This document shows, piece by piece, positions 1 to 63,000 of a stretch of DNA of 64,000 nucleotides (positions are counted from its first letter, which is position 1; every line of letters starts with the position of its first letter). A program made the position numbers. The stretch is from assembly GCF_964204865.1 (NCBI RefSeq), contig NC_135256.1, positions 7,998,001 to 8,062,000 of the forward strand, read 5' to 3'. Origin of the DNA: Styela clava. Taxonomy: Eukaryota.

Positions 1-3000
1 TCTCACATTATACGAATAATACAGATTATACACACAAACAACTTACATTTAACAGGTGATACTAAAGAAGCTGATATTCCTATTTTACGAAAAACTGCGT
101 ACATAAATTCAGGACTGTTTACATACAAATAATATGGCATTTAAATAGTTACAAACTCACAAATTTGCCTTTCCAATAGAGCTGATGAAATTGATCATCA
201 TCATGGCACTCCTTTAGACAGTTTACTTGACTTGGAACAGCTGTAGAAATGAATGAAAGATCAGAAAACAATGTTACATTAAAGAACTAGTTATAATAGC
301 ATGAACCATTGCATTCATGATAAGTTATTGGCAATTTATAGTTATCAATATACTCACACTAGCATTTGGTGAAATTCATGGGCATGGTAGCCTACTACAA
401 TATTCTAGTTTCATTTTATATAGCACGAGTCAGATTCATTGATACCATAAATATTGTACATACAGCATACCAATAACATTTAATATGATTTTACATTGGT
501 GTATATCAAAATATCCAGCCAACCTCTCCCTATCTATTTGCTCCTGGCCTATTTTTTTGATCCGACTTCGGGAACTTATGAATTAGCTAATGACAAGATA
601 CATACACCGGGGCACAGTGCAGCAGTGATACATGGATATCGTATGTAAATCTGCTCATACACAAAATATAATCAAAAGGAATCTTTTGGGCAATGGTAGA
701 TCTAAATATATCATTTTTGTTAAAACATTTTGAAGTTTATATTACTGTAGACTATTAGGAGTATTTGTTCGACGGTACCATTGCACAACTGCTTACCAAC
801 GAAACTATACTAAAGTACTGGGTCCTACCTATGTCTGTGTATGACAAGAACCCATATAACAATACTGGTACAACTGTAGTCTACAATCCAAGCCAAAATA
901 ATTCTTCACAAAAACTGTTAAAAAAATTAAAAAAACGCAAATACAAAAATATATCATTACGCCAGGTACGTATTTACCTTACTGGATTTATTATAGTACC
1001 GGTATAGCCCAATTCCACTTTGTAAATAATTTTGTTCGGGCGTAGATAGGTACATGTACGGTACCGGTACCACCGCAAATCCTACATATCGCAGCCTCAT
1101 GGTACAGGTATACAATAATTTATTCGTCGTGACGCTTGCACAGAGCTCCCTGCAACTTCTTCTGTCGCCTTAGAATACAATATAGATTGTACGGTAAGCG
1201 ATAACATCCAACACGACAAGCGCCACAATCCAAATGCCTCGACAAACCGAGTTAAACCACCTTCAGACCAGGTTCACAAATGCGACGATTTTAAGTCGAG
1301 ATTTACGTCACAGAAAGTTAAACCACCTTTTTGATCCGGACCTAAACCGCCGATCCAAAGTTAAACTCCGATTCGAGGTTAAACTACCTTTTTGATCGCC
1401 ACCTAAATGTATAAATTGCCTCGAATCGGGACATACGGCGCGCGGCTGTAAAAATATAAAGCGGTGCCGAACTTGCGCAAAGGAGGAACATATCAGCTCC
1501 AAATGCCCGAATAAAGTCAAAGAGTCCCAACAGTCGCTCAGGTGATGGCTTAAGACCACAATAGTAAACAAACCGACAACGAAAACAAAACAAAGCAAGT
1601 TTAGGAATCAGATTACCCGAGACGAATTGAAAGAGTTTCTGAAGCTATTTGAATTATCAAAGGACGACCTAGACGGATACCGAATCTGAATCTGTTGACT
1701 TGAGTTTATCGACTAGGCTGAAAGCGATCCAACTAGATCGGAAAGTATGGGAAATGAAAGGGCAGGGCATAAAACTCCCTGCTCACATGATGTATGTTTC
1801 GGATAAGATACCCGTATATTTGAATTATGTTCCTGTAAAGATGTAAAATAAAGTTCTAAAAGAATACTTCGAGGCAAATCATGGCAAAGTCCACCATGTG
1901 GCACACGTCTACGACGGGGACTATAAAACAGGTACCAGATGTTTGATCATGATAAGAGAGGATATTCTGACAAAAAAGCCGGTAAAAAGTTATTGGAGTA
2001 CATGGTTGCACGCTTTTTATAAAGCACTACGGTATCATCCCTACGTGCTTCCATTGTACTAACCCATGACACATCCGTGCATTATGCCCATTGAGATCTA
2101 ACCAAAATAAAACTCAAAGGAATCTGGAATCTGAACAGAAATCATCAACTCAACTAATCAATCAAAATAATCGCGACGTGATTGAAAAGCCCAGTCTACC
2201 GGAACCTGAACAACATGCTGATCAAACCAAAATTGAAAAACAAAATGACGAGACAGCAAAACAGAATGCGGACAATGCTGACGAGTTTGAAAAGAGATTA
2301 CAGGAGTTGGACACCACAACTCCTACTAGCTGGGCAGAAGAGTCAAGGTTTATAACAGCCCAAGACTCGCTTGACTCCATTAGCTATAGCAATAATAAGA
2401 GGTGTAGACAGTCAAACAGTAGCAGCAATACATTACTGAGCAGACCCAGAAAATATGCTAGTGTGACCGACCCACGAGCGGTTTTACAATGCCCGAAATG
2501 TCGCAAAAACATGGGTCTAATGAGTGACCAGAAATAAATCCACTGTATAACATGTAAAATAGATTATAGCCTTTTTTGGACCTGCTGTGACGAGGATGAT
2601 CTCGTCATAATTGAAAACGACAAATTTAAATTCTGGCAACAATCAGATTGCGCAAAATGTAGAAAACGAAGTATACCCACCAAGTACTGCAATACTCTGA
2701 TACCGTATTCAGAATTTATAAAAGCCTAAAACGCATGCCCAAAATGCAAGTCCCCACGCCCCAAATTGAGTTTTTGAAATCAACAATAGTTAAATACAAC
2801 GCCCCTTCTCAATTAGGCCCAAATAACGTTGCGACATATGCTCAATTCAGGAGATACACGCAATCAAACAGGACGAACTAATTTGGTCACAAGAAAGGAA
2901 GTAGGGAAAATCTATTTGTAACTCGTATACGTCTATATCGGCTGGAACAGGAATATTGATATGCAATGAAAGTGTAGAAACGGAAGAGCACAACGCGCAA

Positions 3001-60000: not shown

Positions 60001-63000
60001 ACAAATCCAATCTGGAACGAGCTAGAAAAAAATATGCAAGTCTGACCGACCCGACCCACGCGTTCAAATGACCCAACTGCGAAACGACCGTGTCCCGAGC
60101 AGACGAGCAATGTGACGCATTATGCGTAAACTGCAAAGAAGACTCCCATCTCTTATTTATGGTCTTGTTCTGAGTCTCCGATCTTCTTAAAAAGTCAAAA
60201 CGAAGACGACATTGTGGGAAAAATCTATCTATGACAATCGGACTAGATCGTTGCTGACTACGCATTTCGCATGTCAAATAGACATAAAAAAGAACAAGGA
60301 TATAAACACTTGGATTATATAAATAGATTACTCTTCAGTAGTCGCCGGCCCTTTGACATCACTGGAAATAGACCACAATCAGTGGTAGCAAACGTGAGCA
60401 ATCATATTGATGTTAATTCCTTCTCAGACATACTAGAAGCTGTCAAAATTAATTGAAACTTGAACACATCTCCGGGTTGTACGAATTCAGGCCTAGGGCC
60501 TGGGTAGTTTATTTCAAACAAAATGACGTAGTTCCTATGGGAATCTCTGTGAAAGACGAGTTTATAGAGCAAATCAAATATGGCATTAATCATCGAAACA
60601 ACCCGATAAACTACAATCCACAGGTTAAACCACCTTTTATAATTAGCATCAGGGGATACCTGATGAAACAAAACCCCAGACCGTCTCGACTGCTCTAAGT
60701 CTGATTAACAGCGGCAAAACAAAACACATATCCAAAGTCCAAACTCTATTACCGAGGCATTATATATATATACAATGAGTAGCCTACACATCTCAGCCTG
60801 AGTTTGATAAAACGGAATTCCTACCTTTCATAACCATAGATGGGGCGAGATGTAAGACCTATCTCCCATCTGAAATGTACGAGCTGAAATGCCTAAATTG
60901 CCTATTACAGGGGCACGCCACCTAAAACTGTCCAAACCAGGTGAAATGTCACCTGTGGAGTGTGGAAAGAGGAATCACTTCCAATCAAAATGTCCGCAAA
61001 AAAACAAAGAAAAGCACACCAGAAATCCACAAAACCTGGATAAACCAAGCAATAAAAACAAAACCGAATAAAACAAATGATGTAACGAACAAAACCCCAG
61101 ACACCAATGAAACACAAAAACAACAATACAACCATACCGGATCATTTGAAAAACTCCAGAACAAATCTTCAAACTCCGCAGAAACCCCGGCCGTGAGGAG
61201 GTAAACCAAAAATGAAAAACACCTCTACGAGAGGAAATACCCTCAATTCGACCAAAACTGCCAGGCGTAGTTCTTGTGCACGAAGGCTTCCCAGTTCTGG
61301 TGCGAACGACTACGAACTGAGGGACTCCATCTCTTCATCTGTATTCCTCGAGACACCACAGACCAACTCCACGCCAGTATACCTAGAAAATGTTGAACAA
61401 GCCCCCACGGGCTATCTAAGTTCCACTACAAACAATACATCAGACAAACCACACTAACTATCACTAAAATACCTACGATAAAAAATATTGGCAAAAGTCT
61501 TAAATATAAAGATTCAATATCAAAAACTAATGAGGTCAAAACGATTCAAACAGAACGGGCGACACCCAAGGCAGTAAACAGACCGGAACAAGGCGAAATT
61601 GAGCACTACCAATTAGGGAAACAAGAATCATCAGATGTACCAAATCGAAGCGCGCCCAGGCGTGACCGCCAAAACTATGAGGCGGTCGACGCACAACAAG
61701 AAACGCTTAAGGATGGCGAGTCAGAGGAGATAGATAACGACAGTTTGCACATATCTGAGGAAAAGGATAACAACAAGTGGAAATACATTACATCGGGGAG
61801 TAGCGATGAGTATCGTCTACGAAAAACTATTAGTTTATCTACGCCTGAAACGGCTGTAGAATGCCCGAACTGTAACAAATAATATGGCTTTTGAAGTGAG
61901 AGGCACAATCTGACAGCGAATATGAGGAATGCTCGAATTCAGATGTACCTGGCCATTCAAATGCACCAGCCCGCAAATGTATGTGACTCGCAAAGAAGTC
62001 GTAGAAGAAGGGCATTGTTAGGTCGACAGCGAGGAAGAAGTAGAACGAGAACCACGACCCATCAGGGCCAAGACTAAAATAGCAGAAGGTGGTAAATCCA
62101 CGTGCAATACGTTCGTTTTCGGAGAGAGTAGGCGTACAAAAACAATTTACCCCCAACACTACAAGTTTGAAAGTGTTCTTGCAGTTTGTTACGGCAAATG
62201 ACAAACCTCAACGCCGGGCGCAAGATAGAAGCCTCGGGAAACAGCCAGGTGTGGAAACCAAAGAACACTGAAGAAATGAAGGCATTCCTGGGCCTAATTA
62301 TCATCATGGGACTAATCAGAATATAACGATTGGCCATGTACTGGCAGTAGAAAAACTTGATTTTTGACTGGCCCATCCATACCCAAAAAAATTATCCTAA
62401 TAATTCAAAAAACTTTCAAACTTTTGTGGAAATACCGTACCTCCAGTTCTGTAATGAAACTAAAGCCTCATCTCCACATGACCCACTTAAGAGTTAGACT
62501 GTATAAGATTCGATCACTTTTTGAACTTGTGAAACTGACGATTCTTTCCGTTTATACCCCAAACAAATATAAATCAGTTGATGAATCTATGATTCCATTC
62601 AAAGGTAGAATAAGCTTTTGGTATTTTATACCCTAAAAACGTGTTAGTCTGGGTTTTGGCAGAATCGAAAACAGGATATGTTCCCAAATTTATACTGGCA
62701 AGGATCCACGGTTTCAAGAAGTGGGATTGGCATCTAGGGTGGTGTATGATCTCATTGATCCATTTTTAGATAATGAGTACCACCTATATGTCGATAACAT
62801 TTATACTTCCTCAGATCCTTTTATAAAATTGTATGAAGACAATGTTTATGCCTGTGGTACAGTGCGCTTGAGAAGAACTAATACATGTGAAAAGAAGGGG
62901 TGGACGTGGAATGCCATCGGAAGACTTTCCATGTCCACCCCATCTACATGATTATAATAATTATATGGGCGACGTGGACTTCAAATACGCTATGCGTAAG

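Follow-up and report, generated by a model that had tools for sequence, protein, structure and literature searches.

The 64,000-nt stretch of Styela clava DNA analysed here (the window) is crowded with decayed LINEs lying mostly on one strand, among which are short histone remnants, a Helentron-type rolling-circle transposon and a piece of a piggyBac-type transposase. By similarity mapping across all 64,000 nt, LINE coding debris occupies at least 41.7% of the window, a lower bound that is at least 10 times the genome-wide average of 4.11% given in the consulted part of the S. clava genome paper.

LINE copies and passenger elements

LINE-like bases amount to 24,396 nt on the + strand and 2,305 nt on the − strand (about 90% on +). 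A search with an ORF2 profile of 1238 positions, built from 33 proteins carrying apurinic-type endonuclease and reverse transcriptase (APE+RT), recovered 13 ORF2-like fragments on + and 1 on −; once ORF1-only pieces were added by tblastx of the window against itself, the fragments as we grouped them numbered about 22 on + and 3 on −. The skew is significant under binomial tests of alternative counts (p=4.9e-5 for 24/3, 8.6e-4 for 19/3 and 1.8e-3 for 13/1). The initial annotation, which had described a dense one-strand nest of divergent families, therefore holds for the most part, its omissions being the Helentron and the histone remnants.

Across the copies the APE+RT profile is covered from position 1 to 1176, and Pfam recognises six ORFs with RVT_1 and one with Exo_endo_phos, all on +, so that ORF2 of the window LINEs combines an N-terminal apurinic-type endonuclease with a reverse transcriptase. 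The solved structure nearest to the B3 ORF is LINE-1 ORF2p (E=7.9e-27), R2 being far weaker (E=1.3e-9); judged by this nearness, the elements fit the L1/Tx1 superfamily, the level at which they can be placed. They form two related groups, A and B, with zinc knuckles in ORF1. Pairwise ORF2 identity is 15–50% among 14 copies, with a single pair at 76%, and the ORF1 knuckle regions are 39–64% identical at the nucleotide level; the copies are thus too diverged to be recent duplicates.

Group-A copies and one unassigned piece (coordinates, strand, content):
1600–5970, +, E1: part of ORF1 and near-complete ORF2 (profile 57–1176) with many stops; RVT_1 E=3.4e-15 at 4267–4773, zf-RVT E=3.1e-4 at 5587–5910
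15016–15243, +, A15: ORF1 N-terminal piece directly downstream of the H3 start remnant; tblastx 15058–15141 to 59214–59297
16188–16870, +, A16: ORF1 piece; tblastx 16437–16821 to 59339–59699, 276 bits
24757–25090, +: ORF1 C-terminal piece; tblastx to 2439–2678, 37478–37736 and 57192–57494; possibly one copy with A16, interrupted by the Helentron
29490–31874, −, m29: ORF2 profile 99–491 and 1017–1150, internal deletion; zf-RVT E=1.1e-5; sole − strand LINE copy retaining ORF2
33578–35616, +, A33: ORF1 and ORF2 profile 1–346, 3' truncated
35701–36442, +: separate endonuclease fragment, profile 109–280, at most 26% identical to other copies (unassigned)
36798–40800, +, copy F: ORF1, ORF2 profile 26–827 and 3' region; 49% ORF2 identity to E1
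52554–52766, +: small ORF1 piece, from tblastx of the window against itself
56537–59215, +, A56: ORF1 and ORF2 profile 2–499
59215–60160, +, A59: ORF1, 3' truncated

Group-B copies:
1395–1600, +: ORF1 fragment with the CCHC knuckle region, both ends cut; blastn 1402–1591 to 42940–43129, 83.8%
5971–8256, +: ORF1 knuckle 5971–6600 and ORF2 start 7073–8090 (profile 1–323), probably a single element with 3' truncation
8568–12075, +, B3: ORF2 profile 31–1155 and 3' tail ending in an A-run
12104–14789, +, e12: 5' end, ORF1 interrupted by a foreign insert of about 640 bp (12430–13070), ORF2 profile 4–283, 3' truncated; tblastx 12232–12426 to 42475–42669 and 13069–14789 to 42662–44567
31874–32996, +: RT fragment, profile 533–871; RVT_1 E=7.4e-9
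41035–42215, −, e41: 5' end and ORF1, 3' truncated, head to head with e42; tblastx 41023–42035(−) to 60455–61399 and 13166–13753 to 41256–41884(−)
42222–42313, +: short B3-type 3'-tail remnant upstream of the H4-type start
42347–44650, +, e42: 5' UTR, ORF1 with CCHC knuckle (zf-CCHC E=6.8e-5), ORF2 profile 66–292, 3' truncated
44900–46787, +, B45: ORF1 piece, ORF2 profile 245–333 and 806–892 with internal deletion (76% identity to B3), 3' tail with A-run
46812–47790, +, e46: 5' end and ORF1
51813–52280, +: weak match to the ORF1 end and first ORF2 residues (profile 3–45, E=0.0075); tblastx 43350–43849 to 51813–52495, 220 bits
52870–56523, +: RT fragments, profile 438–510 (twice, doubled by a 1.53-kb tandem duplication at 99.3%) and 675–728
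60188–61400, +, e60: 5' end and ORF1, possible decayed H4-type leader at 60190–60225
63758–64000, −: ORF1 piece leaving the window; tblastx 13274–13477 to 63782–63993(−) and 6030–6164 to 63758–63896(−)

Elements other than LINEs:
17124–24071, −: Helentron-type rolling-circle transposon with an open 1962-aa ORF (17150–23038)
62361–62948, +: piggyBac-type transposase fragment, DDE_Tnp_1_7 E=4.1e-10 and 6.8e-4

Every LINE copy is disabled, the longest ORF (416 aa; 9120–10367, in B3) falling far short of the 1238-position profile; the earlier statement that all elements are dead applies to the LINEs and fails for the Helentron, whose main ORF is open. Likewise, the three − strand blocks that had been reported as the only ones are borne out among LINEs (29508–31868, 41023–42215 and 63758–63993) and not for the window as a whole, the Helentron being on − as well; one of them, given as 40790–42215, moreover begins with a + strand H1 piece. 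That little DNA intervenes between fragments is true in part, LINE similarity being absent at about 16.8–24.8 kb (the Helentron), 25.0–29.5 kb and 47.7–51.9 kb.

The Helentron is a passenger inside the nest and lies outside the LINE pattern. Its long ORF joins, as in Helentrons, a Rep domain (Helitron_like_N, E=6.8e-27), a PIF1-type helicase (E=8.5e-19), an OTU protease, DUF6570 and a C-terminal apurinic-type endonuclease (Exo_endo_phos, E=4.7e-10, residues 1767–1950) in a single protein, a domain set shared with hundreds of relatives. It is 98% and 97% identical to two S. clava proteins, which assigns the window to this tunicate or to a close relative, and to judge from its sequence the element is apparently active. 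A second ORF (22969–23979) holds a 69-nt repeat present 5.4 times, and the candidate termini form a 19-nt inverted repeat with 84% complementarity (17124–17142 and 24053–24071).

Histone remnants and their junctions with LINEs

Histone remnants of three kinds (H3 start, H1 and H4/H2A-type start) are present, all on +, the main LINE strand:
12076–12103, +: diverged H4-type start piece, preceded by the B3 tail and followed by the 5' end of e12
14931–14966, +: H3 gene-start remnant, ATGGCT, a 4-base disruption, then codons TKQTERKST
40897–41034, +: H1 remnant of about 46 residues, covering the N-terminal half of the globular domain
42322–42346, +: H4/H2A-type gene start, ATG and 7 codons (MSGRGKGG)
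46788–46811, +: diverged H4-type start piece, preceded by the B45 tail and followed by the 5' end of e46

The region 40777–41133 matches Pfam Linker_histone (E=3.1e-8, 34.2 bits; cut-off 22.4), and the H1 remnant gave 14 matches to solved H1/H5 globular domains (E=5e-4 to 0.02), which, together with the H3 and H4-type starts, overturns the earlier claim that no histone ORF body is present. The H3 start is identical at 8 of 9 positions to H3 residues 3–11 as printed in PMC5677370, and MSGRGKGG equals Met plus H4 residues 1–7 of the same source; neither start turned up in shuffled windows (0/400 each). When their 24-aa read-throughs were searched with phmmer against solved structures no histone was found, because the H3 (9-residue) and H4 (8-residue) matches are too short. 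A TATA-like run, recognised by eye, lies in the 140 nt that precede the H3 start, and this sequence bears no resemblance to a LINE tail.

Core-histone coding sequence is limited to these H4- and H3-type starts of 8–12 codons. Eleven motifs searched over the whole window with mismatch up to about 33% revealed no core histone body, and in a Pfam scan covering 214 ORFs out of the 222 that reach 70 aa (the 8 left out lie inside the Helentron) the H1 piece was the sole histone match, with no core Histone domain. As had been noted before, the histone 3' stem-loop (Histone3) is absent, an Rfam search of the full window at E≤1 returning just two weak, unrelated matches; nor is there a recognisable histone repeat unit in the window.

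The H4-type start at 42322–42346 switches abruptly into the 5' UTR of e42, and the same head-to-tail order of LINE 3' tail, short H4-type piece and LINE 5' end occurs three times, at e12, e42 and e46. An exact pattern match is found at the e46 leader (46784–46802), and the three leaders align locally with one another (e12/e46 p=0.0, e12/e42 p=0.002, e46/e42 p=0.0), as do the B3-type tails upstream of them (e46/e12 p=0.0, e42/e12 p=0.003). The e46 copy is nearer to e42 than to e12, whereas B45 is nearest to B3; given in addition how highly diverged the copies are, the tail/leader pairs look like separate events. In all five group-B copies whose 5' end survives, the alignment begins at one and the same point, and within this one window an H4-type leader is statistically supported in three of the five 5' flanks, marginal in one (e60, p=0.022 against e46 and not significant against e42 or e12) and not significant in one (e41, in local alignment to the H4-type leaders). 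The e60 leader abuts the ORF1 of an unrelated LINE about 45 nt upstream of the e60 start. The position of the group-B junction within the H4-type start differs between copies, the earliest following codon 5 and the latest codon 8.

Group A joins the H3 start after about codon 12 in a single instance, and no such junction occurs in 9 other group-A upstream regions. The 3' flanks of this group are unlike one another, so that its 8:1 strand bias is unexplained by the data presented here. Histone sequence was not seen on the 3' side of any element in the window. The fusion of histone pieces to LINE front ends points to histone gene starts as the probable target of these elements, and the earlier proposal of an eroded histone array is partly supported: co-oriented H3, H1 and H4-type remnants and three supported junctions speak for it directly, whereas core bodies, stem-loop and repeat unit are missing.

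Proposed insertion at histone gene starts and its alternatives

Target-specific LINEs of the Tx1 clade include Keno in U2 snRNA genes, Mutsu in 5S rDNA, Kibi and Koshi in microsatellites, Tx1L in the Tx1D transposon and Tx1-Mar in Mariner. The window LINEs resemble them in having an APE+RT ORF2 nearest to LINE-1 ORF2p and a CCHC knuckle in ORF1; their insertion, too, would be at one defined site within a repeated target and always in the same direction, and they show a similar tandem arrangement, the consulted text of PMC4494074 describing target-specific, Tx1-mobilised elements as forming tandem copies that sandwich a short piece of target. The criterion for target preference in that text is a sequence shared by more than 20% of flanks. 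They differ from these elements in their apparent target, which is protein-coding, namely the opening codons of histone genes; such starts were not found as a LINE target in the literature searched, nor among the targets listed in that text (snRNA, 5S, satellites, microsatellites and transposons). As with R1 and R2 in rDNA, the window LINEs would sit within a family of tandemly repeated genes and read in the direction of the host gene, with presumed dependence on the host promoter and decay of the inserted units; unlike these, the target would be a Pol II histone gene of which the window has no intact copy, and R2 has a restriction-like endonuclease and matches B3 much more weakly.

We favour, with moderate confidence, the explanation that fixed-orientation insertion of L1/Tx1-type LINEs at histone starts overran a co-oriented cluster, leaving the strand bias as a by-product. 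The window would then be a LINE graveyard on a former histone gene cluster of S. clava or a very close relative, in which LINE 5' ends join the first histone codons in the orientation of the gene, group B at about codons 5–8 of an H4-type start and group A after about codon 12 of H3. The LINE-encoded endonuclease would cut at the histone-start sequence, each insertion leaving or regenerating a short histone target, so that later elements could stack in tandem, and transcription from the histone promoter would read into the LINE, as in other target-specific LINEs. Histone bodies and many LINE 3' halves may have been lost to later deletions and nested insertions. The near-uniform strand would follow from co-oriented targets and fixed insertion orientation, with no need for a function of its own.

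The same junctions could arise, in what we regard as a possible but rather improbable course of events, in an ordinary TE-rich, gene-poor region that was never necessarily a histone array, if the LINEs had acquired H4 and H3 5' ends, by capture or by being transcribed from them, and took these leaders to each new site, newcomers targeting a resident leader or tail. This accounts equally well for the LINE tail, and never promoter DNA, found upstream of each H4-type piece, and the unrelated ORF1 next to the e60 leader and the lack of any histone body or stem-loop speak for it; gene-derived sequence has, moreover, been gained repeatedly at retroposon 5' ends (the SINEU heads described in the consulted part of PMC4494074). 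It would require a separate origin for the H1 globular fragment, which sits at no LINE 5' end, and it is at odds with the non-LINE character of the 140 nt that precede the H3 start and with the shift of the junction from codon 5 to codon 8, as seen at the 5' junctions of target-specific insertions, while the three tail-to-leader pairs would still demand sequence-specific insertion.

Degraded, nested fragments of many lineages are the general look of uni-strand piRNA clusters such as Drosophila flamenco. The window shares this density, nesting and decay, as well as a strong bias by fragments and by bases, and a uni-strand small-RNA source locus was proposed in the initial annotation. It would be transcribed one way and keep TE fragments in one orientation for the antisense small RNAs they yield; on sequence grounds we consider such a locus unlikely. 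The predominance of one orientation concerns LINEs of one superfamily only (the Helentron is on −, the piggyBac piece on +), an apparently active Helentron lies inside, and fixed-site insertion would already explain the strand bias and the co-orientation of LINEs with histone remnants, a feature that sets the window apart from flamenco-type clusters. The two readings are compatible, and a piRNA cluster does not exclude a histone target. LINEs inside vertebrate genes show an antisense bias, so that a − strand intron or transcribed unit purging sense LINEs could be invoked, as could chance through a few local duplications; we find this very improbable. Neither the 214 ORFs nor 12 read-through frames taken from two LINE-free stretches gave a Pfam match resembling a host exon, the skew of about 22:3 far exceeds the modest biases of introns, and the one 1.53-kb tandem duplication explains a single fragment, the remaining copies being highly diverged.

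In its full form, the histone-target explanation states that L1/Tx1-type LINEs of S. clava target H4-type starts at about codons 5–8 and H3 starts at about codon 12, in the sense orientation and riding the host promoter, until a whole cluster is consumed; this we put forward tentatively. If it is true, the strategy of a safe haven in a multicopy gene, known from R1/R2, Keno and Mutsu, would reach beyond RNA genes to protein-coding ones, and a one-stranded nest of transposable elements would be explained without small RNAs.

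LINE content and strand bias

The window contains no N, has a GC content of about 0.35-0.43 and consists of LINE-like sequence over at least 41.7% of its length (24,396 nt on the + strand and 2,305 nt on the − strand, as a lower bound); LINEs make up 4.11% of the S. clava genome in the figures given by PMC7540406. The window has 222 stop-to-stop ORFs that reach 70 aa or more; a Pfam scan of 214 of them (the remaining eight lie inside a Helentron ORF, itself scanned separately) detects RVT_1 in six ORFs, every one on the + strand, together with one + strand Exo_endo_phos ORF, two zf-RVT ORFs (one per strand) and a single CCHC knuckle. 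ORF2-like pieces were mapped with a profile of 1238 positions, derived from the 33 proteins of 1000-1320 aa among the best 39 matches to a 416-aa ORF (9120-10367). This places 13 fragments on the + strand and one on the − strand, the endonuclease domain of the Helentron being an additional match; with ORF1-only pieces, added by tblastx of the window against itself, the total rises to about 22 + and 3 − strand fragments by our own grouping. The strong strand bias proposed in the initial annotation is thus upheld (binomial p = 4.9e-5 at a 24/3 count, 8.6e-4 when counted conservatively as 19/3, and 1.8e-3 when the ORF2-carrying fragments alone, 13/1, are taken), and the three − strand LINE blocks that it named are real.

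The LINEs are also as divergent and as disabled as had been claimed. ORF2 identities among 14 copies are 15-50%, with a single pair at 76%, and no copy is intact, the longest LINE ORF having 416 aa against the 1238 profile positions. The copies sort into group A (E1, F, A33, A56 and m29), group B (B3, B45, e12, e42, B2 and others) and one outlier; within group B, nine ORF1 knuckle regions share just 39-64% nucleotide identity. Profile mapping indicates that many copies retain the 5' end without the 3' end, an unusual pattern among LINEs. The relatives of the 416-aa ORF found in a protein collection are all distant (119 longer proteins, top identity 31-32%), and since its best match of solved structure is LINE-1 ORF2p (E=7.9e-27), with R2 much weaker (1.3e-9), the evidence appears to carry the class assignment as far as the L1/Tx1 superfamily and no finer. 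The proteins matched in the searches bear no clade names. Separately, P0244, an endonuclease-bearing sequence of 331 aa, shares 72% identity with a portion of the B3 ORF, showing that close relatives of this LINE are present elsewhere in public data.

Histone remnants and their junctions with LINEs

Histone remnants missed in the initial annotation (an H1 piece, an H3 start and an H4/H2A-type start) all lie on the + strand. Among the 214 ORFs, Pfam reports a Linker_histone match at 40777-41133 (E=3.1e-8, exceeding the curated cut-off); among solved structures, 14 H1/H5 chains align to this region as well (best E=5e-4), the match taking in some 46 globular-domain residues (40897-41034). The earlier statement that the window lacks a histone ORF body hence fails for H1 and stands for core histones, of which neither 11 motifs nor Pfam on the 214 ORFs reveal a body. 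The reported absence of a histone stem-loop is confirmed by Rfam (whole window, E<=1), which likewise finds no tRNA, snRNA or 5S sequence as a potential target and no small-RNA gene.

The segment at 42322-42346 (+) translates as MSGRGKGG and is labelled H4/H2A type because many H2A proteins begin likewise; at 14931-14966 (+), ATGGCT is followed by a 4-base disruption and then by TKQTERKST. In the histone sequences printed in PMC5677370, the former corresponds to Met plus H4 residues 1-7, and the latter agrees with H3 residues 3-11 at eight of nine positions. With up to one mismatch allowed, neither start peptide occurs in 200 mononucleotide and 200 triplet-block shuffles of the window; 24-aa read-throughs of both starts give no histone match in a phmmer search of solved structures, and these putative identifications hang on very short matches.

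The 5' UTR of the group-B LINE e42 begins immediately after the H4-type start at 42322-42346, its ORF1 starting at 42476, and related leaders precede two other group-B copies.

Further H4-type pieces at group-B LINE 5' ends
46788-46811, + strand: diverged H4-type leader and start, 9-10 nt shorter at the junction, upstream of e46
12076-12103, + strand: diverged H4-type leader and start, 9-10 nt shorter at the junction, upstream of e12

Local alignments among the leaders of e42, e46 and e12 outscore every, or almost every, shuffle (p=0.0, 0.002 and 0.0), and five of five group-B 5' regions align from one common point. The leader of e60 shows marginal similarity, to e46 only (p=0.022); that of the − strand copy e41 is not significantly similar, yet has ATGTCT at the matching place. 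Upstream of the leader, e12 and e46 adjoin a B3-type LINE 3' tail with a terminal A-run, and e42 adjoins 90 nt left over from a tail of this type (local alignment among the three regions, p=0.0 and 0.003), so that three places in the window show a short H4-type piece set between the 3' tail of one LINE and the 5' end of another. Remnants, junctions and tandem arrangement are directly visible in the DNA. Judging by sequence relationships, the three arrangements do not look like the product of one duplication: e46 is closer to e42 (72-75% nucleotide identity in aligned stretches) than to e12, to which blastn gives e46 no match across the 5' region, and B45 is closest to B3 (76% ORF2 identity; 77-78% at nucleotide level by blastn). 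Target-specific elements mobilised by Tx1 also form tandem copies sandwiching a target duplication, as described in a passage of PMC4494074. The e41 (−) and e42 (+) copies stand head to head, separated by about 100 nt (42196-42346), with ATGTCT at the matching 5' place in both; this pair could have arisen by 5' inversion or from two gene starts in divergent orientation.

Downstream of the H3 start lies the N-terminal ORF1 region of the group-A LINE A15. The 140 nt upstream resemble none of five LINE tails, an H3 start precedes other group-A copies in none of nine regions at p<0.1, and none of three group-A pairs has a significant shared 3' flank. Two candidate group-A features were rejected: TAGACGGATATGTA is not a common 5' end, being a conserved ORF1 motif also found at the matching place in group B, and group-A sequence extends further upstream of it; E1 is not an insertion that duplicated a long target, the two flanking knuckle pieces being just 41% identical.

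The Helentron and other non-LINE features

The longest ORF in the window (1962 aa, 17150-23038, −) is a single open Helentron-type frame with DUF6570, OTU, Helitron_like_N (Rep), PIF1 and a C-terminal Exo_endo_phos domain by Pfam. The initial annotation had held that only three blocks are on the − strand and that all are disabled, which is correct for LINEs and wrong for the window as a whole in view of this frame. Searched alone, without joining a second ORF just upstream (22969-23979, −; a 69-nt coding repeat in 5.4 copies), it shares 98% and 97% identity with two predicted Styela clava proteins, suggesting that the family was probably recently active. The two ORFs may form one protein via a splice or frameshift. 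A candidate 19-nt terminal inverted repeat lies at 17124-17142 and 24053-24071, and the flanking group-A pieces at 16188-16870 and 24757-25090 match successive ORF1 parts (E1 coordinates 1691-2096 and 2439-2678); the Helentron may have inserted into a single LINE and parted it into these two pieces.

Several smaller features accompany the LINEs. The ORF1 of e12 is interrupted by a non-LINE insert of about 640 bp (12430-13070), across which homology to e42 resumes exactly; its ends show an inverted match of about 10 nt by eye and no terminal inverted repeats at the thresholds of the repeat tool. A 1.53 kb tandem duplication within an old LINE fragment (52870-54394 / 54394-55926, 99.3% identity) is far younger than all its surroundings, and A56 contains a 194-nt direct repeat (57592-57785 / 57857-58050, 96.9% identity). 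Just upstream of the group-A piece A16 is a C-rich 30-nt tandem repeat (16309-16382, 2.5 copies). Related repeats at 48927-49411 and 50454-50858 (tblastx 130 bits; 72% nucleotide identity over 151 nt) lie in a LINE-free part and have no Pfam match, and a piggyBac-type transposase fragment is found at 62361-62948 (+; DDE_Tnp_1_7, E=4.1e-10).

Possible origin of the nest

Our best reading, to which we give about an even chance, is that LINEs targeting the start of histone genes overran a co-oriented histone cluster. These lineages would cut at the very beginning of the genes and insert in sense orientation, a geometry that would produce the strand bias; each insertion would leave or regenerate a short target, so that further copies could pile up head to tail, and later deletions and nested insertions would erase the bodies of the histone genes and, in many LINEs, the 3' part. 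The inserted LINEs would use the histone promoter; PMC4494074 describes how the target's own transcription can serve a target-specific element. Endonuclease specificity, promoter use and order of events are what we infer here.

In the main alternative, which we consider distinctly less probable, the elements carry the histone starts with them as leaders, and the locus was at no time a histone array. This accords with the lack of a promoter upstream of the H4-type pieces; evidence to the contrary comes from the H1 piece and from the non-LINE DNA that precedes the H3 start. Were this alternative correct, the locus would be an ordinary transposon graveyard with a modest case of 5' capture. A piRNA-cluster role, compatible with either account, seems rather improbable. 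That the bias arises from an intron or selection effect we regard as very improbable, as Pfam recovers no host-like domain from the 214 ORFs and none from 12 read-through frames. The latter span the LINE-free stretches 24300-27001 and 47700-50401, where no Pfam family matches with stops read as X; the stretches 1-1250, 15240-16190, 27000-29490, 33000-33580, 50400-51470 and 61400-63560 are covered only through ORFs 70 aa or longer.

For genome scans, the overrun reading carries a caution: because orientation-fixed insertion into co-oriented targets can by itself yield a dense one-stranded nest, a piRNA cluster should not be called without small-RNA data. Known hosts of target-specific LINEs are ribosomal, snRNA, 5S and tRNA genes, repeats and other transposons; for the Tx1 clade, the targets listed in the relevant part of PMC4494074 are snRNA genes, 5S rDNA, satellites, microsatellites and transposons. 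No histone-gene-specific non-LTR element was found in the one literature library searched, where absence is not proof of novelty. If the overrun reading is true, the LINE endonuclease would count as a candidate whose recognition site is defined, the locus would offer a natural example of a retrotransposon using a strong, germline-active Pol II promoter, and a LINE lineage directed to the starts of histone genes would represent a new target class.
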